From a phage, in assembly GCA_024790105.1 (NCBI GenBank), contig GCA_024790105.1_3053.1: a DNA stretch of 64,000 nucleotides; one strand, given 5' to 3'. Each line of letters starts with the position of its first letter. Positions within the stretch are counted from its first letter, which is position 1. This document shows positions 176 through 18,944 of this stretch, piece after piece. The notes beneath the pieces are model-generated. The model worked only from the letters and a program-made list of their open reading frames with translations. It had not been told where the DNA came from and searched no databases. The translations under genes were made by a program, and so were the position numbers.

Positions 176-1577
<1,402 letters not shown>

Positions 1578-1580
1578 TTA

Positions 1581-1805
1581 TTATTTCTCAACCAACGATT
1601 GAATATAATCATGTAGGTCTTTAGATGCTTTACCCCACTTATTTTGATATTCATTTTTGAGATTAGCGCGTGATTGAGCTAATAAAACATCATTAGTTGG
1701 AGGTAAAGATTCTAATCGCTGAATCTGGCGTCCATAAATCATTGCAGCCATCTCGGATTCATAAATTAATCCTTTTAGATGTTCAAATTGATACCATGAA
1801 ATCAT
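1581..1805 (-). CDS. hypothetical protein
   Basis: 74-aa ORF tightly packed between neighbours. Confidence 0.35.
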   Translation of the reverse strand: MISWYQFEHLKGLIYESEMAAMIYGRQIQRLESLPPTNDVLLAQSRANLKNEYQNKWGKASKDLHDYIQSLVEK

Positions 1806-2101
1806 TTACATTTATCCTCTTTTAGCTCTTGACGATAATAACATATCATAGTTTTCTGGTCATGTACATATCGTTTTACATCATTAAGCCAAATACGAAA
1901 TTCCTGAGAATCTTCAAATGGCATACCTACCCAAGCTTTACCATCAATAACTTTAACTTGCCAAGATAGTTTAGCTTCGTCATATAACTTTATTTGCACA
2001 GGCCAATTAGGATGAACTGTTTCTTTCTTTACTTCTAGAGGCTTTGTCGAACAACCAACTAGAAGACCAATAGATAATATTACTGCAGATAATTTAATCA
2101 T
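1802..2101 (-). CDS. putative o-spanin (outer membrane lipoprotein)
   Basis: 99 aa; signal sequence with lipobox LLVGC; immediately downstream of and overlapping the i-spanin-like ORF; matches T4 pseT.2/pseT.3 spanin arrangement. Confidence 0.6.
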   Translation of the reverse strand: MIKLSAVILSIGLLVGCSTKPLEVKKETVHPNWPVQIKLYDEAKLSWQVKVIDGKAWVGMPFEDSQEFRIWLNDVKRYVHDQKTMICYYRQELKEDKCK

Positions 2102-2451
2102 TTAGAAAGGTCCTGGATGTCTTCTGCGAACTTGTTGAAGGAGTTGTTGATTTGTTTTTCAACCAATCCTGGCTTACGAGCCACCACATCCGCCTTCTTT
2201 GCATCTTTGCGCAGTTTTTCATTTTCACGCTCAATAGCAGCAATCGCCTCACGATTTTTATTATTCATCGCATCAATATAATTATACTGAATTCGCAAAT
2301 TATTTAATGCTAAGGCGTTTTCATTGGCCGTTTTTGTAATTTCTACAACAGACGTTTCTAATCTTTCTACCTTATTTTTTAAAATAATAGATGTTCCGCC
2401 AAATGCTATTACAAGTAATAGCAATCCAGCTGTAAAATTACTTACATGCAT
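2098..2451 (-). CDS. putative i-spanin (N-terminal TM, coiled-coil periplasmic domain)
   Basis: 117 aa; hydrophobic N-terminus LLLLVIAFGG followed by charged helical region; paired with lipoprotein ORF. Confidence 0.6.
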   Translation of the reverse strand: MHVSNFTAGLLLLVIAFGGTSIILKNKVERLETSVVEITKTANENALALNNLRIQYNYIDAMNNKNREAIAAIERENEKLRKDAKKADVVARKPGLVEKQINNSFNKFAEDIQDLSK

Positions 2452-2948
2452 AAAGTTTTAATAACCTCTATAATATCGTCTTGAGCAAGCCCGTTAATTA
2501 AAATATGATGTTCAGCCGGAGATTTAGAAATTTTAAAGCACGCCGCGACATCTTCTGCCATATCCGATGCGCTACGATTTGGATTACTAATTCCAAGACG
2601 ATGCTTTCCTGTCAAAGGATTAACGATGATATAGCATTTGCAGCTATTGATATGAACATTAGGTTGAGTCTGATTAATAAACACTTCACAATCATACTTA
2701 GCGAGTTGATTTTCTAAAAAGACTTTCATCTCCTCAACCGCATCAGGAAGCATATCACGGGATTGCTCAAGACGACGATTTCGATATTCTTTAATGGTCG
2801 TTTTCCGCTTGACTTGCTTAGCTAAATCTTTCTTAAGATCGGTGATATATCCAACTCGACGATTTCCTTTGAATACAGAAATCCCATCTGTAGTATCACC
2901 GTATGCTTCAACGACCATTTCAGTAGTAATAAGCTGCAAATCCATCAT
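2442..2948 (-). CDS. alc: probable Alc (inhibitor of host transcription on cytosine DNA)
   Basis: 168 aa, located between the pseT cluster and rnlA as in T4; length matches remembered Alc (~167 aa); identity by position and length only. Confidence 0.5.
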   Translation of the reverse strand: MMDLQLITTEMVVEAYGDTTDGISVFKGNRRVGYITDLKKDLAKQVKRKTTIKEYRNRRLEQSRDMLPDAVEEMKVFLENQLAKYDCEVFINQTQPNVHINSCKCYIIVNPLTGKHRLGISNPNRSASDMAEDVAACFKISKSPAEHHILINGLAQDDIIEVIKTLCM

Positions 2949-2976
2949 AAAGTCCTCATGTTATGTCAGTAAGATT

Positions 2977-3005
2977 ACTATAACACAACACGAGGGACTT
3001 GTAAA
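2977..3005 (-). promoter_or_regulatory. early sigma70-type promoter (-35 TTTACA, 17-nt spacer, -10 TATAGT on minus strand)
   Basis: minus-strand GTTTACA at 3000-3006 and TATAGT at 2977-2982, directly upstream of the 2948 ORF start. Confidence 0.55.
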
Positions 3006-3009
3006 CAGC

Positions 3010-4597
<1,588 letters not shown>

Positions 4598-4624
4598 AAT
4601 AAAATGGGCCTTGCGGCCCACTCC

Positions 4625-5127
4625 TTAAAAGTATTTTTTAAAACTCATCATAACTTTATCATCAACATCATTATCAATCTGTGCAACAAGGTAAGATGAC
4701 AGTTCTACTTCTTGTGGCGCGGATTGAACATTATCAGAATTAAGGTATTCACGAATCCAAGGATATGGATGTTTAACCGGAGCATCGGTAATCGGGCATG
4801 GAAGACCGCACTGTTTCATACGAGACACAGTCAAGTAATCAATAAAGCTCCACATGCTATTTGTATTTAATCCAGGAACATCACCATCTTTAAATAAATG
4901 AACTGCCCAATCTTTTTCTTGGCGGTTAACTTCCATGAAAATATCAACTGCTTCTTGTTCACACTCTTGAGCAATTTTAACCCATTCATCACTATCAGTA
5001 CCAGATTGAAGTTGACGAATAATATATTGGGTGCCTTTAAGGTGAAGCTGCTCATCACGTGCAATGAACTTCATAATCTTGGCATTACCTTCCATGATTT
5101 CCATGTTCTTATGGAAGTTAAAGGTAC
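4625..5127 (-). CDS. nrdB: ribonucleotide reductase small subunit, exon 2
   Basis: C-terminal R2 sequence (MEGNAKIMKFIARDEQLH...) in frame from the inferred 3' splice site after an intron-terminal G at 5128. Confidence 0.8.
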
Positions 5128-5694
5128 CGTTATGTTCGATTGAGCTCGCTAATTCTCAACCCGTTCTCTTATGAACTGCTACATATTACTATGCAGACCA
5201 GACTATATCACAATCCCAGAGGGATTCTCCCCATTTCGAGTCGCTTGACCCTACGTCCGAAGACTAGTCGTTGAACCTTGCTTTGCAATTGTCGCCGTGC
5301 CATCGTTTATATGTTGATGGTGATAAATCTTTCTTATCACAATATGGACAATTCAATTGAATTCTATTTGGATTTAATTTACATCTGTCATTATGTTTTA
5401 GATAAAATCCAGAACCTTTACCAATGTGACCGCAGAAATCGCATGTGATTTCTTTTTGTGCAGGATGGGTCCCGTTCTTAACCATTTCTAATGTTTTTGC
5501 TGATGTCTTTTCTTATGGTCTTCCATCAGAATCTTTAGGTATAGTTCAATTGTGCATCCTCTTAAAAGTATAATCATATTTATGTTATACTAATTAAAAG
5601 TGCAAGCAAAACCTTGGCTGCTAGTTTTCCTATAAAGGACTTTCCAGCAATTAAAGGAGTTTTCGATAAACGTTACCGTTTAAAGGCGCATTTT
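5128..5694 (-). mobile_element. group I self-splicing intron in nrdB (boundaries approximate)
   Basis: interrupts conserved R2 sequence between FYVSFA and FNFHKNMEIMEG; exon 1 ends in U; intron ends ...GAACAUAACG, closely similar to the td intron 3' end ...GAACAUAAUG; carries a degenerate ORF. Confidence 0.75.
5264..5485 (-). CDS. intron-encoded ORF, probable truncated homing endonuclease remnant (I-TevIII-like zinc-finger region)
   Basis: 73-aa ORF inside the nrdB intron with CxxC...C and CxxC cysteine clusters; no HNH catalytic motif present. Confidence 0.45.
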   Translation of the reverse strand: MVKNGTHPAQKEITCDFCGHIGKGSGFYLKHNDRCKLNPNRIQLNCPYCDKKDLSPSTYKRWHGDNCKARFND

Positions 5695-6370
5695 ACGCAA
5701 AAGATACATAAAAACGAATAGCTTCTAAGGCATTAATAACGTGTAAACAGAGGTAAAGAGACTTCATTAAAGCACGTTTAGCTTCGGCTTCTTGTTTAAT
5801 AGCTCGGTTTAAACGAAAGTCGGCATCAGGAGATTCTTTAGCTAGTTCTACAAATTCTTTAGCATTTTCCCAATAACGAGTTTTAATCAGAACATCATCA
5901 TAATAGCGACCGATAGATTCAGCACGTTTCATGATAGCTTCGTCTAATACAATCTCGTCAAATACCTTAGCAGGGTCATTGAACAAGTTACGCATGATAT
6001 GAGTATATGAACGACTATGAATAGTTTCACTAAAAGTCCATGTAGCAACCCATGTATCAAGGCTTGGGTCTGAAAGCAATGGCATAAGTATCGCAGATGG
6101 TGCACGCCCCTGGATGGAGTCTAACAATGACTGGTATTTTAAGTTATTGATAAATATAGATTTTTGATGTTCTGGGAGCTTGTTAAATTGTGCAGCATCC
6201 ATCATCAAGTTTACTTCTTCAGGACGCCAGAAAAATGATAAAGATTTCTCAATAAGTTCTTCAAATACTCGATGCCGTTGAATATCATAACGCGCAATAC
6301 CAAGACCTGAACCAAAAAACATGGGTTCTTTTAAAACATCAACTGGATTTGTATTAAAAACTGTGCTCAT
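5695..6370 (-). CDS. nrdB: ribonucleotide reductase small subunit, exon 1
   Basis: N-terminal R2 sequence ending ...EAIRFYVSFA; ORF stop lies inside intron sequence. Confidence 0.8.
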
Positions 6371-6421
6371 AAATTTTCCGCTTAGTTAATAGTTGGTGAC
6401 TCGTCCGTGAGTCAAATTATA

Positions 6422-7411
6422 TCATAATTTACAGGATGAACAATCTTCAGCTTTTGGAGTTTCTATTTCGTAATCATCAGTGCCAGAACCATCACGGGTA
6501 TTATGATAATAGAAATTTTTAATGCCATAATACCATCCGTATAGCATGTCATCAATCATTATTGACATTGGAACCTTTCCTTTTGGAAAAATCTGCGGGT
6601 CATAGTATGTATTCGCTGAAGCTGATTGACATACCCATTTCAGCATAATAGCTACTTGCGTAAGATAAGGTTTATTACCTTTCTTAGCTAATTTCCATGT
6701 ATAATCATAGAGGTCTATGTTATGCTCAATATTGGGCACGACTTGATTAAAGGAGCCCTCTTTTGATTCTTTAACAGAGACTGGTCCACGTGGAGGCTCG
6801 ATACCGTTTGTACTGTTAGAAACTTGGGAAGATGACTCACATGGCATAAGTGCTGATAATGTGCTATTACGGATGCCAAATAGCTTAAGGTCTTCCCGCA
6901 GCGCCGACCAGTCACAAACGTATTTTGGAGCTGCGATTTGGTCAATCTTTTTATTGTACCAGTCGATAGGTAATTCGCCTCGAGACCAACGAGTGTCTGA
7001 ATAATATTCGCAAGGTCCTTTTTCTTTGGCGAGCTTAATGGATGCTTTAATGAGTCCATACTGTAATCTCTCAAATAGTTCATGTGTTAAATCGTTAGCA
7101 TCTTCATAAGAAGCAAAGTTACTTGCCAGCCAAGCTGCATAGTTAGTAACACCTACACCAAGGTTACGACGCTTTTTAGCTTTTTCTGCTTCAGGAACTG
7201 GATATCCTTGGTAATCCAAAAGATTATCAAGAGCACGAACTTGAACTTCTGCTAATTCATTAATTTTATCTTGGTCTTGCCAGTCAAAATTGTCTAATAC
7301 GAATGCAGAGAGAGTACAAAGGCCCACTTCACCTTTGTTTTCAATAACTTGTATTGTTGTATACTCATCATCTTCGTAAAATTCATCTACAAATTCATAA
7401 TCAATATTCAT
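6422..7411 (-). CDS. nrdA: ribonucleotide reductase large subunit, C-terminal fragment (NrdA-b)
   Basis: 329 aa with own ATG; from GEVGLCTLSAF onward matches class Ia R1 C-terminal half, ending with the CSSCKL cysteine tail. Confidence 0.85.
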   Translation of the reverse strand: MNIDYEFVDEFYEDDEYTTIQVIENKGEVGLCTLSAFVLDNFDWQDQDKINELAEVQVRALDNLLDYQGYPVPEAEKAKKRRNLGVGVTNYAAWLASNFASYEDANDLTHELFERLQYGLIKASIKLAKEKGPCEYYSDTRWSRGELPIDWYNKKIDQIAAPKYVCDWSALREDLKLFGIRNSTLSALMPCESSSQVSNSTNGIEPPRGPVSVKESKEGSFNQVVPNIEHNIDLYDYTWKLAKKGNKPYLTQVAIMLKWVCQSASANTYYDPQIFPKGKVPMSIMIDDMLYGWYYGIKNFYYHNTRDGSGTDDYEIETPKAEDCSSCKL

Positions 7412-8111
7412 TTAATTCTTCTACCTTTTTTCGAGATATTCCTAGAGCTTTAGATGCTCGATGTATTGATTGATATTCTATACCGTTTATTTTTACAGCA
7501 ATTAAGTTATGGGGTTTTAATCCCTTTGGATGAGGTTTACTGACGTATTCTTGATTATCGTTTTCAGAGATATTATCAAGCTTTCGACACTTAAAGCCTT
7601 TATGTTGAGACCTTTTGCCTTTGCATACGGCCGACATTGCCGAAGCATTGAGTGAATGTAGTTCGCAAAATTCTCTTAGGCCTTTATGGATTTCTTCATG
7701 ACCGTCCGGGAAAGTAAATACCCAAGTTGTTTGAAGTTTTTCTCTATGCTCGTCAGTTGCCGGAATACCTTTGTTCCAAGCTGGTTTGCCTTTATTATTT
7801 TCAGATACAGAAATAGCCAATTTTCTTCTAAGCCACCCATGGCGTTTATTGGTGTTCTTTCGTTCAATATTATCTTCAGAATAAACACACATCATATTAG
7901 CGGCAAATACCAATTTATGATTATCTGGATATATCTTTACTAATAATTGATGAGCTATGTAATGCTCTTCGGGTGTCAAATCTACCAGGTTTTCCTTTGT
8001 ATCAGAACCACCAATACACAGAGGTATAATATGGTGTGATTCGGTATAGCAATCTAATTTTCTGTTCTTAGCTTTAGAAATAAGGTTATTGTAAATTTTA
8101 GAATAATCCAT
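7401..8111 (-). CDS. HNH homing endonuclease, Mob family (mobE-like), inserted within nrdA
   Basis: 236 aa; HNH motif HHIIPLCIGGSDTKENLVDLTPEEHYIAH; N-terminus MDYSKIYNNLI paralogous to mobA N-terminus; AGGA RBS; stop overlaps NrdA-b start. Confidence 0.85.
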   Translation of the reverse strand: MDYSKIYNNLISKAKNRKLDCYTESHHIIPLCIGGSDTKENLVDLTPEEHYIAHQLLVKIYPDNHKLVFAANMMCVYSEDNIERKNTNKRHGWLRRKLAISVSENNKGKPAWNKGIPATDEHREKLQTTWVFTFPDGHEEIHKGLREFCELHSLNASAMSAVCKGKRSQHKGFKCRKLDNISENDNQEYVSKPHPKGLKPHNLIAVKINGIEYQSIHRASKALGISRKKVEELNEY

Positions 8112-8156
8112 AACTTTTCCTCTTGTTATGGATTATTTATTAACGGTCTGTGTACT

Positions 8157-9590
8157 TTATTTGCTTTGAATTATACCGCCAGGATTAGCTTCATAAAACT
8201 TAGCTACATCCGACTTCTTAATTTTGATTAAACGGGTTTGTTGGCTATTCACATCATTTGTTGGAATAGCAATTTCACAGCACAAGTTACTCTGACGAAT
8301 TGGAGCTTTTTCACGAATAAACGGAGTGTAGTTATTCGTATTATCAATGAACTGTACATAAATCCTTGCTGTTCCTGAGCGTTCAGTCATGAGCAATTCA
8401 AATAGTTCACGGGCTTTAATACGCTTTTTGCGAATATTAGGGTCTTTTTCTGCTGCTTCGTATAATTCACGGAAACGGTCTTGGTCTTTAAAATAAGAAT
8501 AATAAAGCTCTCCACCCATTTCATGCGGACTGAACAAAGTAATGTAATCGTTCTTTCCGAATCGTTCCATCATTAGGTCATTCAGCTGGACGCCATAATC
8601 CATATGACGAATGCGGTTTTCTTCTACACCTTTGTTATTTTTCAAAACGAGAAGATTTTCAACTTCCAAATGCCAAATAGGATAATAAGCAGTAGCAGCG
8701 CCGCCACGAATTCCACCCTGTGAGCATGATTTAACAGCAGTCTGAAAATGTTTCCAAAAAGGAATAACACCAGTATGACGTACTTCACCCGTACCAATCT
8801 TAGAACCTTCGGCACGAATCATACCAACGTTAATACCAATTCCAGCGCGTTTAGAGATATATTCAACAATTGAAGCGGAAGCCTTATTGATAGACTTTAA
8901 TGAATCACCTGCCTCAATAACAACACATGAACTAAACTGTCGAGTCGGAGTACGACAACCAGCCATAATAGGAGTTGGTAATGAAATCTGTCGAGTAGAT
9001 ACTGCTTCATAAAAACGGATAACGTGTTTTAATCTATCAACAGGTTCATCTTGATGCAATGCCATTCCGATAGTCATAAATGCAAACTGTGGAGTTTCAT
9101 AAATTTGACCAGTGGTTTTATCTTTAACTAGATATTTTTCTTTTAATTGCATCGCCCCGGAATAAGTAAATTCCATATCCCGCTCGTGCTTAATTTTTGA
9201 TTCTAAAAATGTAATTTCTTCTGCTGAATATTTTGACAATAATTCAGGGTCATATTTACCTTCATTTACACAATAAGAAATATGGTCAATAAATGAACGT
9301 GGTTCATACTGCCCATAAACATGCTTACGAAGAGCAAACATTAAACAGCGTGCAGCTACATATTGATAATCAGGCTCTTCAACTGAAATAGAATTCGCAG
9401 CAGCCTTAATTACAATGGTTTGAATGTCATCAGTGGTCATTCCATCACGGAGATATGATTTAATATTTTCATATAATTCATAAGGATCTACAGATGTTCC
9501 TTCAGCTGCCCAAGATAAAACTTTAATAATTTTTTGCGGGTCAAAGCTTTGAGAAACACCACTACTTTTGATAACATTAATTAATTGCAT
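8157..9590 (-). CDS. nrdA: ribonucleotide reductase large subunit, N-terminal fragment (NrdA-a)
   Basis: 477 aa from MQLINVIKSSG (AGAGGA RBS); ATP-cone and catalytic region through SNLCCEIAIPTNDVNS, then 28 unrelated codons and a stop. Confidence 0.85.
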   Translation of the reverse strand: MQLINVIKSSGVSQSFDPQKIIKVLSWAAEGTSVDPYELYENIKSYLRDGMTTDDIQTIVIKAAANSISVEEPDYQYVAARCLMFALRKHVYGQYEPRSFIDHISYCVNEGKYDPELLSKYSAEEITFLESKIKHERDMEFTYSGAMQLKEKYLVKDKTTGQIYETPQFAFMTIGMALHQDEPVDRLKHVIRFYEAVSTRQISLPTPIMAGCRTPTRQFSSCVVIEAGDSLKSINKASASIVEYISKRAGIGINVGMIRAEGSKIGTGEVRHTGVIPFWKHFQTAVKSCSQGGIRGGAATAYYPIWHLEVENLLVLKNNKGVEENRIRHMDYGVQLNDLMMERFGKNDYITLFSPHEMGGELYYSYFKDQDRFRELYEAAEKDPNIRKKRIKARELFELLMTERSGTARIYVQFIDNTNNYTPFIREKAPIRQSNLCCEIAIPTNDVNSQQTRLIKIKKSDVAKFYEANPGGIIQSK

Positions 9591-9615
9591 AAGTCCTCTG
9601 TAGTAAGTTACCCCA

Positions 9616-9623
9616 TATAAATA
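9616..9623 (+). promoter_or_regulatory. T4-type late promoter TATAAATA
   Basis: exact TATAAATA 22 nt upstream of the GIY-YIG ORF ATG, followed by an AGGAGA RBS. Confidence 0.7.
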
Positions 9624-9645
9624 TAATTTTATATAGGAGAATATA

Positions 9646-10377
9646 ATGAAATCTGGAATATATGCTATTATAAACACTAAAACTAATAAGCACTATATAG
9701 GAAGTGCAATTAATTTTGAAGAACGATGGAAACGACACTTTAAAGATTTAGATAATGGAAATCATCATTCAATAAAGCTGCAGCGTTCTTATAATAAGCA
9801 TGGTAAAGATGCTTTCGTATGTAAAATCATAGAAGAACTTCCATACGAAAAATCTATCATTATTGAACGTGAAAATTATTGGATGCATGAATATGACTCA
9901 AAGGAAAATGGGTATAATATAGCAGACGCATCGTTTGGGGATACCTTATCTCATCACCCAAGAAAGCAAGAAATCCTTAATAAAATTTCAAATGCAATTA
10001 AAAATAATAATTCAAAATTATCACCAGAAGAACTTAAGCAAAAACATGGTAGACCTAGAGACATCAAAGGTAAAACTATAGAAGAACACTATGGGTTAGA
10101 TCGTGCTATAGAAATAAGCAAAAAGTTCCAAGAAAGAAACGCTGCACTTAATATGAAAGGCATCAATAATCCATATTACGGTCAGACGCATACCAATGAA
10201 GTTAGAAAACGAATTTCTGACTCACAGAGAGGTAAAAAGAAACCCCATCTAAGAGTAAGTATAGATGGGGTAGAATATCCAACAATAGCAGAAGCTGTGC
10301 GTCAAACCGGAATAAGCAGAAAACTTATATCTAAAAGATGTGCTCTAGATTGCTGGGAATCATATTTATACTGCTAA
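9646..10377 (+). CDS. free-standing GIY-YIG homing endonuclease, I-TevI paralog
   Basis: 243 aa; N-terminal ~100 aa about 70% identical to the I-TevI catalytic domain encoded at 11094-11831 (MKSGIY...YIGSA...RWKRHFKDL...NGYNIADA); different C-terminal DNA-binding region. Confidence 0.85.
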
Positions 10378-10623
10378 AGTTCTACATTCGTCATATTGTT
10401 CTTCCGTTAAAACAGTAATATCGTAGTAACAGTCAGAAGAAGTTTTAACTGTGGAAATTTTATTATCAAAATACTCACGAGTCATTTTATGAGTATAATA
10501 TTTTTTGCCATAAATGGTAATAGGCTGTTCTGGTCCTGGAACTTCTAACTCACTTGGATTAGGAAGTGTAAAAAGAACTACACCAGAAGTATCTTTAAAT
10601 CGTAAAATCATATATCCTCGCAA
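10366..10623 (-). CDS. hypothetical protein
   Basis: 85-aa ORF between td and the GIY-YIG gene; 3' end converges on the GIY-YIG ORF. Confidence 0.4.
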
Positions 10624-10634
10624 TTAAATTAAAA

Positions 10635-10946
10635 TTATACCGCCATTTTCCCTTTCAAGACACCGTGGGACTGATAATCTTTGAGAACGAAATCTTTAGG
10701 CCTGAGTTTAAGAACATATTCCAATTGTTCTTTAGTAGAAAGATAGCGGAATTTATAAGGCAATCCGCCTATTACCAGTTCACAAAGCTCTTTAGGTTCA
10801 CGACGCAAAATTTCTTTACATTGTTCTACGTGATTCATATAGATATGAGTATTACCGCCAGAAAATATCAAATCTCCAGGAATAAGATTACACATCTTAG
10901 CTACAATATGAACTAACGCAGCATATGATGCAATATTAAATGGAAG
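10635..10946 (-). CDS. td: thymidylate synthase, exon 2
   Basis: LPFNIASYAALVH... C-terminal TS sequence; exon 1 (183 codons) + exon 2 (103 codons) = 286 aa. Confidence 0.9.
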   Translation of the reverse strand, partial: LPFNIASYAALVHIVAKMCNLIPGDLIFSGGNTHIYMNHVEQCKEILRREPKELCELVIGGLPYKFRYLSTKEQLEYVLKLRPKDFVLKDYQSHGVLKGKMAV

Positions 10947-11962
10947 CATTATGTTCAGATAAGGTCGTTAATCTTACCCCGGAATTATATCCAGCTGCAT
11001 GTCACCATGCAGATCAGACTATATCTCCAACTTGTTAAAGCAAGTTGTCTATCGTTTCGAGCCACTTGACCCTACTCCCCAAAGGGATAGTCGTTAGGCA
11101 TTTATGTAGAACCAATTCCATTTATCAGATTTTACACGATAAGTAACTAATCCAGACGAAATTTTAAAATGTCTAGCTGCATCTGCTGCACAATCAAAAA
11201 TAACCCCATCACATGAAATCTTTTTAATATTACTAGGCTTTTTACCTTTCATCTTTTCTGATATTTTAGATTTAGTTATGTCTGAATGCTTATGATTAAA
11301 GAATGAATTATTTTCACCTGAACGATTTCTGCATTTACTACAAGTATAAGCAGAAGTTTGTATGCGAACACCGCACTTACAAAACTTATGGGTTTCTGGA
11401 TTCCAACGCCCGTTTTTACTTCCGGGTTTACTGTAAAGAGCTTTCCGACCATCAGGTCCAAGTTTAAGCATCTTAGCTTTAACAGTTTCAGAACGTTTCT
11501 TAATAATTTCTTCTTTTAATGGATGCGTAGAACATGTATCACCAAACGTTGCATCAGCAATATTGTATCCATTAATTTTAGAATTAAGCTCTTTAATCCA
11601 AAAATTTTCTCGTTCAATAATCAAATCTTTCTCATATGGAATTTCTTCCAAAATAGAACATTCAAACACATTACCATGTTTGTTAAAAGACCTCTGAAGC
11701 TTTATAGAAGAATGACATCCTTTTTCTAAATCTTTAAAATGCCTCTTCCATCTCTTTTCAAAATCTTTAGCACTTCCTACATATACTTTATTGTTTAAAG
11801 TATTTTTAATCTGATAAATTCCGCTTTTCATAAATACCTCTTTAAATATAGAAGTATTTATTAAAGGGCAGTCCTACAATTTAGCACGGGATTGTCTACT
11901 AGAGAGGTTCCCCGTTTAGATAGATTACAAGTATAAGTCACCTTATACTCAGGCCTAAATTA
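10947..11962 (-). mobile_element. td group I self-splicing intron (1016 nt)
   Basis: 5' end UAAUUUAGGCCUGAGUAUAAGGUGACUUAUACUUG... and 3' end ...AACAUAAUG recognised as the T4 td intron; exon 1 ends in U, intron ends in G. Confidence 0.9.
11094..11831 (-). CDS. intron-encoded GIY-YIG homing endonuclease I-TevI
   Basis: 245 aa, MKSGIYQIKNTLNNKVYVGSA...; recognised as I-TevI; lies wholly inside the td intron. Confidence 0.9.
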   Translation of the reverse strand: MKSGIYQIKNTLNNKVYVGSAKDFEKRWKRHFKDLEKGCHSSIKLQRSFNKHGNVFECSILEEIPYEKDLIIERENFWIKELNSKINGYNIADATFGDTCSTHPLKEEIIKKRSETVKAKMLKLGPDGRKALYSKPGSKNGRWNPETHKFCKCGVRIQTSAYTCSKCRNRSGENNSFFNHKHSDITKSKISEKMKGKKPSNIKKISCDGVIFDCAADAARHFKISSGLVTYRVKSDKWNWFYINA

Positions 11963-12511
11963 ACCTAAGAAAACATCTACACTGCGTTGGTACCATTGTA
12001 AATCAAGATGTCCATTACGCACATTGAACTGATAGAACATGTGGCAAGGAGGAAGAGCCATTTGATTGATTTCAGCTGGATTCCACGCCGACACAATTTG
12101 ACGCCTATCACTTGGTAGTTTTTTAATACGATCAATAACTTCTACAATTTGGTCTACACCGCCAAAATCACGCCATTGTTTTCCATAAATTGGACCAAGT
12201 TCACCACTATGATATCCTAGGTCTTTAGCCTGGTTTTCATAGTTATCGTCCCAAATAGTTTTACCTTGAATAAGACTACCATGAGTGCGAAGACGTAAAT
12301 CATTAACATTGGTAGAACCGGAAATAAACCATAGAAGCTCAGCAATGCAAGCTTTCCAGGCGAGCTTTTTGGTTGTTACCGCAGGAAAACCTTTGGTTAA
12401 ATCCCAACGCAATTTAGTACCGAACAAAGCAATTGTTCCTGTGCCCGTTCGGTCATCGGTTTCGTAGCCATTTTCAAAAATGTCTTTAATTAAATCTTGG
12501 TATTGTTTCAT
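11963..12511 (-). CDS. td: thymidylate synthase, exon 1
   Basis: MKQYQDLIKDIFENGY...QRSVDVFLG; conserved TS N-terminal region with active-site PPCH. Confidence 0.9.
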
Positions 12512-12555
12512 TTAGTACCTTATATAAATTATAATACATTTTATGAAGCTAATAA

Positions 12556-13752
<1,197 letters not shown>

Positions 13753-13762
13753 ATTATTTTCC

Positions 13763-14062
13763 TTAAACAGACTTTTTCACAATTTTCCAATCAGCTTTAA
13801 ACTGTTCAACGTCAGAATGGTAAATCCAGAATCCTGCGCTTTCTCCGTCTTCATAAAGAGGACATCCATCGCATTCATCTTCCCATCCCATATCACGTAA
13901 AAGGTGTTCAGCTTTTTCAACAAGCTCAGAATCTTTACCGATGATATTAAAATACCATTTACCTCTAACTTCTGAATCTTTGATGCTCTGACGTTGTAAT
14001 CTCATTTTATTCTCCTTAGTTGATAAGGCTATAGTATCACTACCATAGCCTGTTGTAAACAA
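13763..14062 (-). CDS. hypothetical protein
   Basis: 99-aa ORF, tightly packed. Confidence 0.4.
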   Translation of the reverse strand: MFTTGYGSDTIALSTKENKMRLQRQSIKDSEVRGKWYFNIIGKDSELVEKAEHLLRDMGWEDECDGCPLYEDGESAGFWIYHSDVEQFKADWKIVKKSV

Positions 14063-14365
14063 TTATTTTTGAATTTTATCGAGCCACTTACCAAGCTTAA
14101 TCATTTCTTTAGTAGCCTTTTCCATACTTCTGAACTTAACCAATAGAGGATAGGTATCGACACCCATAACTAAATTGGTTACAAGACTGTGTTCACCCAC
14201 AAGCCATAACGAATACGTTTGAATATCGAGCCCGTAATTTCTGTCTTTATGGACCCGTACACCCATCACTTCAAATTTCTCACTAGCTTTTTCTACCGCA
14301 TCCAGGAAATCATCTTTAGTCATATTAGGCCTTAAAAGTTTTTCGCAAAAGTTCAATGATTTCAT
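14063..14365 (-). CDS. hypothetical protein
   Basis: 100-aa ORF. Confidence 0.4.
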   Translation of the reverse strand: MKSLNFCEKLLRPNMTKDDFLDAVEKASEKFEVMGVRVHKDRNYGLDIQTYSLWLVGEHSLVTNLVMGVDTYPLLVKFRSMEKATKEMIKLGKWLDKIQK

Positions 14366-14711
14366 CTACATTGTTTTCATCTACAATGCAGTGAATTTTT
14401 GTTACGCCAGAAACTATACCTTCATTAGCGGATTGAGGCTTTTCTAAAGTTACCTCAGTAAAGTATTTGAATTCTTCAGAGTAAATCTCAAAATACGTCT
14501 CAAGTGGGCCACCCGCCATGTATTCAGTGCCATCTTCCATAGTTACACGTACCACACAGTCACCAGCACAATCATCACTTTCCATTTCATCTACAACAAA
14601 ACTAGGTCCGTGCTTCTCTATTAAATTTAGCATCATTACATTGCAACGGCACTCGTTAGCAAAGTCATTTTTAAATAAAGGGTTAATGATATAAGTTTTT
14701 CCAACTTCCAC
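14325..14711 (-). CDS. hypothetical protein
   Basis: 128-aa ORF with CxC and DDCAGDC cysteine clusters. Confidence 0.4.
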   Translation of the reverse strand: MEVGKTYIINPLFKNDFANECRCNVMMLNLIEKHGPSFVVDEMESDDCAGDCVVRVTMEDGTEYMAGGPLETYFEIYSEEFKYFTEVTLEKPQSANEGIVSGVTKIHCIVDENNVDEIIELLRKTFKA

Positions 14712-14757
14712 TTTGATTTCCTCATTTTAACGGGGCTATCAAATAGCCCCTTGATAA

Positions 14758-14985
14758 TTATTGTTCAATCAGTCCCATGTAAAATTCTGCGTCTTCAGAA
14801 CCCATGTCATCACAATATTCATTAGCCATAAAGAGGGTGAGGTCTTCAAGAGGACCTTTAATAACGATTTGAATACTCCAAAACTTAGAATCTTGCACGC
14901 TTGTGATACTAAGTTCAGGATAACGATTACGAATAGTCTCTTCAATATATTCAAAATCAACGATGTCAATATCAACTTTAGCCAT
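14758..14985 (-). CDS. hypothetical protein
   Basis: 75 aa from MAKVDIDIV with strong RBS AAGAGGAAA; the longer ORF start at 15048 would lie upstream of the promoter. Confidence 0.4.
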
Positions 14986-15028
14986 ATTATTTTCCTCTTT
15001 AATCATCAGCAGTATTGCCGATAGTTGT

Positions 15029-15057
15029 ATAGTACCATGGAAGGACAAGGATGTAAA
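15029..15057 (-). promoter_or_regulatory. early sigma70-type promoter (-35 TTTACA, -10 TACTAT)
   Basis: minus-strand GTTTACA at 15052-15058, 17-nt spacer, TACTAT at 15029-15034; A/T-rich upstream block. Confidence 0.55.
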
Positions 15058-15080
15058 CCGTTTTGTGAAAAAATTTTTGA

Positions 15081-15108
15081 AATAAAAAAGGGGACCTCTA
15101 GGGTCCCC
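15081..15108 (-). terminator. rho-independent terminator downstream of gene 32
   Basis: minus-strand GC-rich hairpin GGGGACCCUAGAGGUCCCC followed by UUUUUUAUU. Confidence 0.6.
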
Positions 15109-15130
15109 AATTAATTAGTAATATAATTTA

Positions 15131-16036
15131 TTAAAGGTCATTCAAAAGGTCATCCAGGTCCGTGTCATCAGCACTAGATGAACTGCCAGAGCTTGAGCTC
15201 ATAAAATCATCTTCAGTTTTTGTATTGAAGTCATCAACATTGAATGCATCCAAATCATCAGCAACTTTATCAGCTTTCTTAGCGGCAGTTGCTGCGGCAC
15301 CGCCCATCACAGCAGTTCCCATAACTTGACCGAATTTAGTGCTCAGTTCTTCAAACGATTTGAATTTATCTTTAGAAGTCATTTCAGAAAGGTCAACCAT
15401 TTGTTCGAACAGTTCTTTCTGGAAAGATTCATCGTCAATGTTTGGAATCGCAGATTGATTCAGGAATTTAGATTCGTCGTAGTTACTAAATCCAGAAACC
15501 TGTTTAACTTTCAGTACAAAGTTAGCACCTTCCCACGGACAAGTTACATCAACCGGAGTTTCACCCATTTCAACATCAACCGCAATCATTGCATTGATTT
15601 TATCCCAGATTTTCTTACCGAAACGGTATTTAAATACTTTACCTTCATTTTCTGGAGCAGCTGGGTCTTTTACAACAAGAATGTTAGCCCAGTAAGAAGT
15701 TTTACGTTTAACAAGACTGTACTCTTTATTATCAGTGTTGTACAAATCATTTTTACTGATGTACTGACATACTGGGCAAGAATCGTAATCACCGTGGGTA
15801 GATGAACACGTTTCAATATACCATTTGCCATTTTTCTTGAAACCATGATTTACAAGAATTGCAAATGGTGCTTGTTCATCATTTTTAGACGGAAGAAAAC
15901 GAATTACTGCTTGACCGTTACCCGCATTATCGAGTTTCAGTTTCCACTCGCCTTTATCTTCAGAAGAAAAACCTTTATTGCCATTCAGTTTAGCCATTTG
16001 TGCAGCAAGTTCAGCAGTAGATTTACGTTTAAACAT
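15131..16036 (-). CDS. 32: single-stranded DNA-binding protein gp32
   Basis: 301 aa; [17 protein letters not shown]...; zinc-binding Cys/His cluster; acidic Ser-rich C-terminal tail; recognised as T4 gp32. Confidence 0.95.
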
Positions 16037-16085
16037 TTTATTTCCTTTTTAATTTAATTAACAGTTGGTGCTATGACACTTTACC

Positions 16086-16718
16086 TCATAGCTGGCATAA
16101 TTTGCAATACTCTGGGTCTTCGAGAGGTATCCAACCTGAGTTGAAATACTTTACCATCGATTTAGCAGTTGTATCAGTTATATTTATATTACCTTTAACT
16201 CTTCGCCATCCAGGAGTTTTACCGTACAGATTAGAAGATAATAATAACACATAATTCTCGTAAGCAATATGAGATAATTTCCAAGACTCTATATTAGCTC
16301 GTGATGTTTTCCAAGGTCTAAAATCGTCACGGTTCATATAATTAGCCAATCTCATATGCTCTCTAACTTCCGGGTCTTTGGCTGGATGAGTTTCACCACT
16401 CACACCAAATCCACCACCAGCATATACCAAATTAAAATAGTCTGGATTATCTCTGGCATTTACTTCAAGTTGGTATTTTCGTTCTGCTTCAATAACATCT
16501 AAGTCATCATCAATTTGAATTATTTTAACGCTCGGTTTTTGAAGCATTAGCGCATTCAAAAATCTTTTTTGTTTACATGAGCTCCAGTATTCCTTTCCGG
16601 AAGAGTCATATATTATTCCGTTCTCAAATGAGCAATTTAATTTACTACCGATATAGTAGTATGGTGGAGTCTTATTTTTGACACGGTCTTCAAATGTAAA
16701 CCAATATACTATATTCAT
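16086..16718 (-). CDS. probable GIY-YIG-type endonuclease (SegG-like, between genes 32 and 59)
   Basis: 210 aa; N-terminal YYYIGSKLN...GIIYDSSG resembling the Seg GIY-YIG motif; position matches T4 segG as recalled. Confidence 0.5.
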   Translation of the reverse strand: MNIVYWFTFEDRVKNKTPPYYYIGSKLNCSFENGIIYDSSGKEYWSSCKQKRFLNALMLQKPSVKIIQIDDDLDVIEAERKYQLEVNARDNPDYFNLVYAGGGFGVSGETHPAKDPEVREHMRLANYMNRDDFRPWKTSRANIESWKLSHIAYENYVLLLSSNLYGKTPGWRRVKGNINITDTTAKSMVKYFNSGWIPLEDPEYCKLCQL

Positions 16719-16719
16719 A

Positions 16720-17373
16720 TCAATACTTACAAGATTTCACAGTTTCAATAAAAACTTTTTTAGCTTCCTGTGAATCAATATTTAAAATTTTTCTATAAGC
16801 TTTTAACTTTATAGAATAATTATTCCAGACTAAATTATCAGTCTGTTCATCATGTTTATCGATTATATTTAAAAATGAATCAAGCAAGATAAACGTCTCA
16901 AACGAAATTATATTCGATTGAAGTAGTTTAAAAATATAACTTGATTGAACTTTTGGATTATACTCAAAGATTTCTTTAAAAGCAGAAACTTCAACTTTTT
17001 TACTAAAATAATAAATGTTGCGAATATCTTCTTCAAACTTAAACTTAATTTGCTTTAAGCGTCCGATATATTCACGATAAAACACAAGTGCATCAGCGTC
17101 AGAGATGTCACCAATCCAAGCATCTTGGTTAGCAACAAGATTGCTTATAAAGATTAAAGCAAGTTCCTTTAATTTATATTTTTCTGATAACTTCTGGAAA
17201 AAATACTTATCCCTTCGCTTTTGATAAGCGGCATCAGACACCCGCATGCACCAATTATACTTAATTACATCATACTTTCCATTCATGTGTTGTTTTATCA
17301 TTAAGTATAATTTATAAACTGATTTACCATCAATGTATCTTTCACCACCAGCAGGCATGCGGAGTTTAATCAT
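16720..17373 (-). CDS. 59: helicase loader gp59
   Basis: 217 aa, matches remembered gp59 length and sequence. Confidence 0.9.
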   Translation of the reverse strand: MIKLRMPAGGERYIDGKSVYKLYLMIKQHMNGKYDVIKYNWCMRVSDAAYQKRRDKYFFQKLSEKYKLKELALIFISNLVANQDAWIGDISDADALVFYREYIGRLKQIKFKFEEDIRNIYYFSKKVEVSAFKEIFEYNPKVQSSYIFKLLQSNIISFETFILLDSFLNIIDKHDEQTDNLVWNNYSIKLKAYRKILNIDSQEAKKVFIETVKSCKY

Positions 17374-17708
17374 AGTAGAAAATCTAATGTATTAGTTTTT
17401 TCACAACGAACAACAGAAGGACGTAAAAGATTTTCGTCAATAGCTTCTGACTGAATTTTTTCAATTATACCCGAAGGAATAAATTTAGCAAATTGAGTTT
17501 CAGGAATAGAATTTTCTTCCAAGAATGCTGTCGTAGCTTCAAGATAACTCATTCCAAACTCTTCTACCATTTTTTCAATAATAAATCCATTTTCTTGACG
17601 ATCAAGAAGCTTTGCTATTTCATCCTTTTCTTTCTTAATTGAAAGTTCTTTTTCTGAAAGACCGGTCTCATCGACCGGACGAATATCATTTAGAGAAAAC
17701 TGTGTCAT
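17370..17708 (-). CDS. 33: late transcription co-activator gp33
   Basis: 112 aa from MTQFSLNDIRP; position between 59 and dsbA. Confidence 0.85.
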   Translation of the reverse strand: MTQFSLNDIRPVDETGLSEKELSIKKEKDEIAKLLDRQENGFIIEKMVEEFGMSYLEATTAFLEENSIPETQFAKFIPSGIIEKIQSEAIDENLLRPSVVRCEKTNTLDFLL

Positions 17709-17955
17709 AAAGTTCAACTACCTCTTCAGTTTCAGCTTCAAACACATCACGATTATCTTTATGATACAAAGCTAATAGACGATTAAACATCTTACCATCA
17801 ACGCCAAGTTCATCTTTAGCACGAATTCGAATATCTTTAATCAGTTCATTATAACCGGAAATTTTCAGTTTATGATCAGATGCTTCTTTAATAAATTTAG
17901 CCAAGTCTTCGCCATGGATAGCTTCATCAAATTCAACCATTTCTTTTTTAGCCAT
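17686..17955 (-). CDS. dsbA: double-stranded DNA-binding protein DsbA
   Basis: 89 aa; position and length match T4 dsbA. Confidence 0.8.
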   Translation of the reverse strand: MAKKEMVEFDEAIHGEDLAKFIKEASDHKLKISGYNELIKDIRIRAKDELGVDGKMFNRLLALYHKDNRDVFEAETEEVVELYDTVFSK

Positions 17956-17963
17956 TATTCACC

Positions 17964-18881
17964 TCAAAATTCATTAATGCTATTAGTTAATTTAGAAAGA
18001 CCCGCTTTTACAAAATATGAATAAATTTTGCCACGCGGTGGTAATTTATATGAATTATAGTAATTCACAATGTTTGAAGCAATATTATCAGGAATATAAT
18101 CAAAATCAATTAGAACTAAATTTTCTTTATACCGATTATATTCAGATTCTGTGAGAAGCACCTTAGCTTGCTCACGGTCATTAGCAATAGCTTCAACGAT
18201 TGAAGTTTTCATTGAAGGAGTTCGTTCACCTTCAACTTTGGTAAACCAAAAGTCAGATCGTACTTTAACTGAAGCAACGTTATCCTTTTTATCGCCTTTA
18301 AGGATTTTAGTCATGCAATCAATTTCAGCAGAACCGCTTTTAATTTTAACCCATTTCTTGTGCATCGGTGACCATTGCTTAACATTTGGGTATTTGTGAA
18401 GTTGAGTAAAGTCACCATCCGATGAAATGATTAAAATCTTGTGTCCTTCTAAAGAGAACTTTTTAACAAGAACAGCAATGTGGTCATCTGCTTCATACTT
18501 ATCGATATCCATAACAATGTATGGCATATAAGCTTTCAATTCATCTATAACTTTATGGCTGGATTCAAAATAACCTTCCCAGTCCCAAGTAGATTCTTCT
18601 CGTGCTTTTCCACGGTTTTTCTTATAATAATACGCGAAATCACGACGCCAATATCCAGATTTCGCATTATCAATACACAGTACAATTTTAGTGTATCCAA
18701 GAGTTTTTGCTTTTTTGACATTAAACTTAATTGAGTTCAATATCAAATGACGAACCATTGATAAATTAATTTTTTCTTTATCTGGGAAGTTTACTAGAGC
18801 AGTCGAAAGCGCAATTTGACTAAAGTCAATTAAGCAAATTCCTTCTTTGTAATCTTCATCCAGCATCATTTCTAAATCCAT
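17964..18881 (-). CDS. rnh: RNase H (5'-3' exonuclease, FEN family)
   Basis: 305 aa from MDLEMMLDEDYKEGICLIDF; acidic active-site residues; recognised as T4 RNase H. Confidence 0.9.
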   Translation of the reverse strand: MDLEMMLDEDYKEGICLIDFSQIALSTALVNFPDKEKINLSMVRHLILNSIKFNVKKAKTLGYTKIVLCIDNAKSGYWRRDFAYYYKKNRGKAREESTWDWEGYFESSHKVIDELKAYMPYIVMDIDKYEADDHIAVLVKKFSLEGHKILIISSDGDFTQLHKYPNVKQWSPMHKKWVKIKSGSAEIDCMTKILKGDKKDNVASVKVRSDFWFTKVEGERTPSMKTSIVEAIANDREQAKVLLTESEYNRYKENLVLIDFDYIPDNIASNIVNYYNSYKLPPRGKIYSYFVKAGLSKLTNSINEF

Positions 18882-18944
18882 ATGAACCTCGTTCAATTAG
18901 TGAGATTTCTATTATATACCATCCAAATCTTAAAGTAAACAAGT

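Follow-up and report, generated by a model that had tools for sequence, protein, structure and literature searches.

A free-standing I-TevI-like endonuclease gene beside nrdA in a phage genome, and its probable homing role

We analysed a 64,000-nucleotide stretch of phage DNA (GenBank assembly GCA_024790105.1, contig GCA_024790105.1_3053.1; hereafter the window), in which an endonuclease gene related to that of the homing endonuclease I-TevI lies on the plus strand between nrdA and nrdA.2. The locus holds the following features.

9646-10377, plus strand: endonuclease open reading frame (ORF), 243 amino acids (aa), 729 coding nucleotides (nt)
9616-9623, plus strand: T4-type late promoter motif TATAAATA, 30 nt before the ATG
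9635-9640, plus strand: ribosome-binding site (RBS) AGGAGA, 5 nt before the ATG at 9646
9577-9598, minus strand: nrdA start codon (9590-9588) and nrdA RBS (GAGGACTT), with the left junction of the cassette described below immediately beyond
10366-10611, minus strand: nrdA.2 (DUF5496), convergent with the endonuclease ORF and overlapping it by 12 nt

The gene, its reading signals and its protein

The ATG codons of nrdA and of the endonuclease gene diverge and are 55 nt apart. When ORFs of at least 75 aa are counted and those that shadow longer ones are excluded, the endonuclease ORF is the sole plus-strand frame within a minus-strand block running from 176 to 18896. Rfam detected no group I intron around it, the only such introns it found in the window being those in td (10995-11225) and nrdB (5179-5419). 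Judged from this sequence context, the gene is free-standing, intergenic and antisense to its neighbours, and is not intron-encoded. An initial annotation of the locus had described the plus-strand frame, the exact TATAAATA and AGGAGA upstream of it, the 55-bp distance to the divergent nrdA start, its solitary orientation in the block, its convergence on a small minus-strand ORF (nrdA.2) and its free-standing state, and all of these were borne out. A fold of the RNA over the RBS (9625-9700) is not significant (z = -0.48), and translational control by an RBS hairpin, as in I-TevI, was rejected on this basis. No sequence record matched positions 4500-13500 of the window from end to end, the best coverage being 91%.

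The encoded protein falls into three parts.

9646-9939, plus strand: GIY-YIG catalytic domain, aa 1-98 (Pfam, 1mk0, Foldseek)
9940-10155, plus strand: helical linker, aa 99-170, occupying the place of the I-TevI zinc finger
10156-10359, plus strand: DNA-binding module, aa 171-238, a NUMOD3 helix followed by a helix-turn-helix

The N-terminal part matches the GIY-YIG domain in Pfam (PF01541, 7e-15), and residues 1-98 match the sequence of the I-TevI catalytic domain 1mk0 at 1e-39. In an AlphaFold2 model of the protein (predicted local distance difference test, pLDDT, 86.8), the same part superposes on 1mk0 with a root-mean-square deviation of 0.6 A and a template-modelling (TM) score of 0.98 in Foldseek. 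Nearly the whole protein (aa 2-240) matches the NCBIfam model TIGR01453, 'group I intron endonuclease', with 128.5 bits against a cut-off of 56.05. The window also encodes an I-TevI (11094-11831, minus strand), with which our protein shares 70 of its first 100 residues (70%, in agreement with the initial annotation) and 45.5% of residues overall. Residues Y6, Y17, R27, H31, H40, E76 and N91 are all kept, and across 46 homologs they are invariant except for Y6, which is nearly so; a careful alignment, which the initial annotation had called for, thus shows no loss of GIY-YIG catalytic residues. Its sequence places the protein as a GIY-YIG homing endonuclease of the I-TevI subfamily (TIGR01453). 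Positions K26, C39, I86 and T95 of I-TevI modulate cleavage preference (PMC5009752), and their counterparts here are E, N, E and S. The cleavage motif is probably CNNNG-like, and the preference is probably altered, since all four tuning positions differ.

The remainder of the protein is more diverged. The linker contains NUMOD3 sequence and has no CxC...CxxC motif; the I-TevI zinc finger (Pfam PF22635), which the window's I-TevI matches at 1.3e-20, is absent from this ORF. Identity to the window's I-TevI is 20% over aa 116-170 and 31% over aa 171-243, and only 26% over the DNA-binding half. Pfam finds NUMOD3 in two stretches (2e-6) and the I-TevI_DNA-bd family at E=2.3e-4, although the latter's 21.4 bits fall short of the cut-off (27). 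By sequence, 1i3j, the structure of the I-TevI DNA-binding domain, is hit at E=2.8e-7 over residues 156-239; Foldseek also retrieves it with the AlphaFold2 model, at a probability of 1.0. In that model the module consists of a NUMOD3 minor-groove helix (184-194) and two helix-turn-helix helices (214-221 and 225-233). The initial annotation had held the C-terminal half to be unrelated to I-TevI and had proposed a database search with it; the search, once run, returned the I-TevI DNA-binding domain itself, so that this claim was wrong. Both the matches and the model identify the C-terminal half as a diverged homolog of the I-TevI DNA-binding domain that lacks only the zinc finger. A target site differing from that of I-TevI, as predicted in the initial annotation, is nevertheless plausible, because the DNA-binding half is only 26% identical; but with its whole family tethered to td, the very gene that I-TevI targets, td stays a candidate.

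Cassette, distribution, selection and promoter

Junction alignments and sliding identity delimit a stretch that is shared with Klebsiella phages of the genus Jiaodavirus.

9597-10378, plus strand: mobile cassette, 782 bp, 84-99% nt identity to Jiaodavirus
10379-10385, no strand: junction filler GTTCTAC, between the cassette and the resuming T4-homologous nrdA.2 (ATTCGTCAT...)

In Tequatrovirus the cassette stands in for 300 bp of T4 DNA comprising nrdA.1 and the last codons of nrdA.2. In T4, RB3, RB27 and other phages the position is occupied by nrdA.1 (DUF4326) and a full-length nrdA.2, in line with the initial annotation, which knew of no endonuclease here in T4. On the left, homology to T4 ends right after the nrdA RBS, at the end of CATAAGTCCTC, and it does so at the same nucleotide in both genera. 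The right junction varies by genus: it lies within nrdA.2 in Tequatrovirus, where similarity to T4 picks up again at ATTCGTCAT, within the 3' end of that gene, and at the td stop codon in Jiaodavirus. The insertion alters the C terminus of NrdA.2, which ends in ...DECRTLAV as against ...DELFQRGPSMPGSE in T4. In endonuclease-free Jiaodavirus genomes the interval holds a nrdA.1 homolog (72% aa identity to that of T4) and a 68-aa ORF. For annotators of these phages, the cassette explains both the missing nrdA.1 and the different NrdA.2 C terminus. One Jiaodavirus, KP179, has an unrelated 301-bp segment with an ORF of about 76 aa (L012 3250-3550) between nrdA and the cassette, and its left junction differs for that reason.

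Nine of 524 flank-matching Tequatrovirus records carry the gene (N2, ECO07P5, TB004, CJY920, sutha, RPN226, LH2 and two records of Ozark), with 96.3-98.8% nt identity over a 1.3-kb query. Among Klebsiella Jiaodavirus it is present in 18 of about 155 flank-bearing records, at 89-93% aa identity. Between the two genera the endonuclease gene is 84-99% identical in nt, compared with 63-79% for the adjacent nrdA, and its synonymous divergence (dS) is 0.32-0.48 against about 1.8 for nrdA. Since the gene is both more similar and lower in dS than its neighbour, these alignments show it to have been transferred between the genera long after they diverged.

All 12 copies examined are intact, with exactly 729 coding nt, and the ratio of nonsynonymous to synonymous divergence (dN/dS) is 0.02-0.10 in both halves, values that mark the protein as being under strong purifying selection. 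Against KP179, the window's copy has a dS of 0.05 over its N-terminal and 0.65 over its C-terminal half. Because the two halves differ so sharply, the comparison suggests recombination near the domain boundary of the gene. Comparison with both KP179 and Nispero shows the same mosaic, the catalytic half being nearly identical across genera (dS 0.05-0.10) and the DNA-binding half much older (about 0.65).

The motif TATAAATA is not in itself over-represented, with 7 occurrences in the window against 11 +/- 3 in shuffled sequence. Its placement is another matter: besides this gene, five free-standing homologs have an exact copy 30-35 nt before the ATG, as follows (identity to our protein in each case).

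P0004: 76%
P0007: 56%
phiR1-RT: 54%
AbTZA1: 51%
Octan: 47%

The intron-encoded relative P0052 also has an exact TATAAATA at the equivalent upstream position, and Acj133 has 7 of its 8 bases. Upstream DNA is otherwise unalignable among the motif-bearing homologs, and it is because the position is kept in such distant relatives that we count placement rather than frequency. By these alignments the late-promoter motif, which in T4 late genes stands at about -10 relative to the transcript start, is conserved across homologs, and we infer late transcription from it by RNA polymerase modified by gp55 and gp33.

Three further signals were noted within the gene. A second exact TATAAATA, at 10370-10363 on the minus strand, falls within the final codons of the endonuclease gene and is shared by the Jiaodavirus copies; late antisense transcripts could start from it and cross the gene toward nrdA. 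In the 5' coding part, TGCTTAT, a 13-nt spacer and TATAAT occur at 9692-9667 (minus strand), identically in KpV477; this pattern, which came from a loose search of AT-rich DNA, may serve nrdA as a middle promoter of MotA type lying within the endonuclease gene, an arrangement known from other T4 endonuclease genes. Finally, a weak palindromic hairpin with a 5-bp stem and an 8-nt loop, followed by a T-run, lies at 9690-9707 on both strands (codons 15-21); such terminator-like hairpins are not above chance, with 2 found against 0.6 +/- 0.8 expected.

The td neighbourhood and related systems

Members of this protein family are found at td in three arrangements.

Plus strand, convergent with the td 3' end: KpV477, KP179, Nispero, phiR1-RT, Octan, Acj133, P0004, P0007, P0011
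Inside a td intron: P0052, without a zinc finger
Downstream of td on the same strand: P0043, P0054

The convergent members abut or overlap td, except for AbTZA1/P0011, where a 54-aa ORF intervenes. Without exception, relatives down to 42% identity have the gene at the 3' end of td, in most cases with a conserved TATAAATA ahead of it. On its far side, the Acj133 gene is flanked by something other than nrdA, and that phage keeps an intact nrdA.1 at another location. As td is the only constant neighbour, this distribution points to td as the target gene of the family. The occurrence of one family as intron passenger, same-strand gene and convergent gene bears on the old question of how free-standing endonucleases and introns came to be united, and makes that union testable.

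In an unbootstrapped neighbour-joining tree, the I-TevI clade with the zinc finger is a single branch nested among zinc-finger-less relatives. A far-reaching reading, which we consider a long shot, is that the steps by which I-TevI became intron-encoded can still be seen in living phages of this td-tethered family, and that the present gene would cut td and mobilise neighbouring td alleles in trans into naive genomes, including ORF-less td introns such as those of N2 and CJY920. It draws on the free-standing members downstream of td in either orientation, on the zinc-finger-less members within td introns, and on the derived position of the zinc-finger clade.

The state of td varies among Tequatrovirus carriers of the gene: td is intron-less in ECO07P5 and Ozark, has an intron with I-TevI in sutha, RPN226, LH2 and the window, and has an ORF-less intron in N2 and CJY920. 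On this comparison, the endonuclease gene is independent of the td intron state. The ORF-less intron, of about 248 nt, with its core kept and the I-TevI ORF cleanly absent, occurs in N2 (L001 5551-5798), in CJY920 and in at least 35 further records. It is fairly common in Tequatrovirus, with 37 records covering the query in one piece. The td gene of the window (10635-10949 and 11960-12511) belongs to a highly polymorphic locus. Across 13 Tequatroviruses, 343 of 870 columns vary and exon 1 is 78-92% identical, with a calm stretch just downstream of the intron insertion site (5 of 60 columns variable).

One of the closest known systems is I-TevI itself (PDB 1mk0/1ln0 and 1i3j), whose cut in intron-less td falls at CAACG, 23-25 bp upstream of where the intron inserts. 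The two proteins have the 70%-identical catalytic domain whose model superposes at 0.6 A, a NUMOD3 minor-groove helix with a C-terminal helix-turn-helix, and nearly the same length (243 aa here, 245 aa in I-TevI), and both genes have a late promoter just upstream and a physical association with td. Unlike I-TevI, our gene lies outside an intron, on the opposite strand and downstream of td, and its product has no zinc finger, a DNA-binding half of only 26% identity and changes at all four preference positions. In I-TevI the zinc finger sets the cleavage distance (PMC10448857). I-TevI serves as the model for GIY-YIG homing endonucleases and has lent its nuclease domain to genome editors, so that a natural variant with 70% catalytic identity, four changed tuning positions and no zinc-finger 'ruler' is of use for studying the cleavage motif and how distance is set.

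I-BmoI, from the thyA intron of Bacillus mojavensis, is likened here by description only. It has NUMOD3 repeats and no zinc finger, belongs to the same GIY-YIG subfamily and targets a thymidylate synthase gene; it differs in being intron-encoded and from a Gram-positive bacterium. At the equivalent of I-TevI T95 it naturally has S (PMC5009752), as does our protein.

The Seg endonucleases of T4 (SegA-G) are also free-standing GIY-YIG genes between conserved genes, with a patchy distribution in T-even phages; they cut the adjacent conserved gene and are inherited through repair (intronless homing), and some are antisense to their neighbours (segD) or have embedded promoters (PMC2988022). By sequence our protein belongs to the intron-endonuclease subfamily TIGR01453. 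BLASTP against the SegG-like protein of the window (16086-16718), the Seg protein to which the comparison was confined, gave E=0.12, and both proteins match the broad family phrog_314. Seven free-standing endonuclease genes of T4 lack a promoter of their own (PMC2988022), in contrast to ours with its late promoter.

The genes annotated 'I-TevI-like' in Acinetobacter phages 133 and Ac42, in Kimel and Octan, in Yersinia phage phiR1-RT (g234) and in Klebsiella Jiaodavirus belong to the same family as ours, converge on the td 3' end and mostly have the same late-promoter placement. Identity is 42-54% in the Acinetobacter and Yersinia phages and 89-92% in the Klebsiella phages, and their genes run right up to the td stop codon, from which ours is separated by nrdA.2. 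The genes of 133 and Ac42 have been noted as annotations only (PMC4177764). Free-standing endonucleases of the T-even nrd-td neighbourhood also include MobE, in trans-homing with I-TevIII and in the mobE-split nrdA of phage Aeh1, but these are HNH rather than GIY-YIG enzymes, with targets in nrdB or nrdA. Public annotations of our gene read 'homing endonuclease', 'endonuclease I-TevI' or 'GIY-YIG nuclease family protein'. With about 27 public phage genomes carrying it, already annotated, the gene is less unusual than the initial annotation supposed; it is an ordinary addition to a known class of homing endonucleases, and the tethering of its family to td is the most interesting by-product of the analysis.

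Homing, candidate targets and other mobile elements

With a probability of about 0.75, we take the gene to be free-standing and to encode an active homing endonuclease, expressed late, from the I-TevI branch of the GIY-YIG family. The reading is built on the anatomy of the locus, allele replacement, transfer across genera, purifying selection and promoter conservation, from which the timing of expression, cleavage, target and homing are inferred. Late in infection, TATAAATA would drive transcription by the gp55/gp33-modified polymerase. The NUMOD3 helix and the helix-turn-helix would then bind a long DNA site in a co-infecting genome without the gene, and the tethered GIY-YIG domain would nick both strands some distance away to leave a staggered double-strand break. 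Repair of the break from the carrier genome would copy the cassette and delete nrdA.1, a case of intronless homing (localized marker exclusion). In favour of td as the target, a conserved gene next door is what most free-standing endonucleases of T4 cut (Table 1 of PMC2988022). For the present enzyme, the family's neighbourhood gives a site in td an even chance of being the target; the displaced nrdA.1 segment is a possible but more doubtful candidate, and the balance falls to nrdA or a site elsewhere.

Several observations weigh against this interpretation. At about 2% of Tequatrovirus records the gene is rarer than a very efficient drive would make it, and since flanking haplotypes are fully shuffled relative to it, its spread inside the genus could be due to ordinary recombination. 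In a small sample (9 carriers against 4-6 non-carriers), 600 bp of nrdA, nrdA.2 and the entire td coding sequence all lack fixed differences between the two groups, so that a target in a flanking gene would have no visible self-immunity polymorphism. Several Seg enzymes, however, cut their own genome's allele too, and for this reason the missing immunity is not decisive. Our search of the literature, which left most subscription journals outside its reach, found annotations but no functional study of this protein or its close relatives, and no cleavage or homing assay.

The operator of I-TevI resembles its target. We compared every 20-mer of the promoter region 9592-9660 with the endonuclease-free alleles of T4 and KP185 as a combined search for operator and homing site; the best match was 15 of 20, within the 14-17 obtained with shuffled sequence, and no pointer to the target emerged.

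The alternative that survives best concerns the target. Under it, the enzyme would recognise a site in nrdA.1 or in the overlap of nrdA.1 and nrdA.2, homing would replace nrdA.1, and carriers would be immune by deletion. This proposal, which we hold to be tentative, has in its favour that nrdA.1 is the only element lost in both genera, between which it is 72% conserved in aa. Given that the flanks show no fixed immunity differences, self-immunity would here have to come from the deletion itself, and the finding that flanking haplotypes are unlinked right up to the junctions would fit a cut in a heterologous segment repaired with short conversion tracts. The best-conserved stretch of the endonuclease-free alleles also lies in nrdA.1 (28 of 30 positions, with a 24-nt exact run, TGGGGAAATTACGTCGGTAAAGAT), but the 5' end of nrdA and the 3' end of td reach 26 of 30, a difference so slight that ranking target regions by cross-genus conservation was abandoned as too small to decide. 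A target in nrdA.1 is harder to reconcile with Acinetobacter phage 133, which has a 42%-identical homolog together with an intact nrdA.1 elsewhere, and with td rather than nrdA.1 being the constant neighbour family-wide.

A domesticated, non-homing role is unlikely. The phage might, for instance, use the protein as a late transcriptional repressor or to degrade the DNA of its host or of competing or superinfecting phages, and the gene would then spread by ordinary recombination alone. Strong purifying selection does show that the protein is useful to something, low gene frequency and shuffled flanks would suit such a role, and I-TevI acts additionally as an autorepressor (PMC2988022). Yet the comparison of the promoter region with endonuclease-free alleles revealed no operator-like similarity above shuffled controls, the catalytic residues are all kept, and cross-genus transfer coupled with allele replacement is the classic signature of a homing endonuclease gene.

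It is rather improbable that the enzyme is directed at td in the manner of 'collaborative homing', in which its cleavage of intron-less td close to where the intron inserts would mobilise td introns, ORF-less ones included, along with the enzyme's own gene. A precedent for such collaboration is the cyanophage psbA case. Another is reported for MobE with the defunct I-TevIII intron (PMC2790892). The protein is the closest non-intron relative of I-TevI, with a homologous DNA-binding module, the whole family is associated with td, and N2 and CJY920 combine the gene with an ORF-less td intron. Most carriers, though, have an intron-less td (ECO07P5, Ozark, all Jiaodavirus examined, phiR1-RT, Octan and Acj133) and would be cutting their own genomes, and the DNA-binding half is only 26% identical to that of I-TevI. 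An association between the gene and the ORF-less intron was rejected, as at least 35 other records have that intron and lack the gene. Least probable of all is that the gene is a decaying, inactive relic of a former homing endonuclease gene: many such genes do degenerate in phages, as the truncated I-TevIII remnant at 5264-5485 of the window illustrates, but a relic is effectively ruled out by 12 of 12 full-length copies and a dN/dS of 0.02-0.10, and the catalytic residues across the 46 homologs and the promoter and RBS are conserved as well.

The window holds further mobile elements beside the gene. A 236-aa HNH endonuclease gene at 7401-8111 splits nrdA into two pieces (8157-9590 and 6422-7411, minus strand) directly after the active-site motif NLCCEIAIPTNDVNS. 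Rfam detected no group I intron at this insert, and a hidden intron, here or around the I-TevI-like gene, was rejected for want of a match. In consequence the arrangement resembles the 'genes-in-pieces' ribonucleotide reductase of Aeromonas phage Aeh1, and RPN226 and the metagenome locus L024 have nrdA split in the same way. Between nrdB exon 1 and the C-terminal piece of nrdA (6370-6422) there are only 51 nt, and mobE and nrdB.1 of T4 are absent. The group I intron of nrdB (5105-5692, minus strand) is matched by Rfam over 5179-5419 with 37 bits, below the gathering score, and its ORF at 5264-5485 (minus strand) is a 73-aa I-TevIII remnant, as in T4. Upstream of gene 32 lies the SegG-like gene (16086-16718, minus strand; phrog_7504, 8.5e-134), in which a copy of TATAAATA is embedded at 16188-16181 (minus strand), in agreement with the published T4 arrangement.

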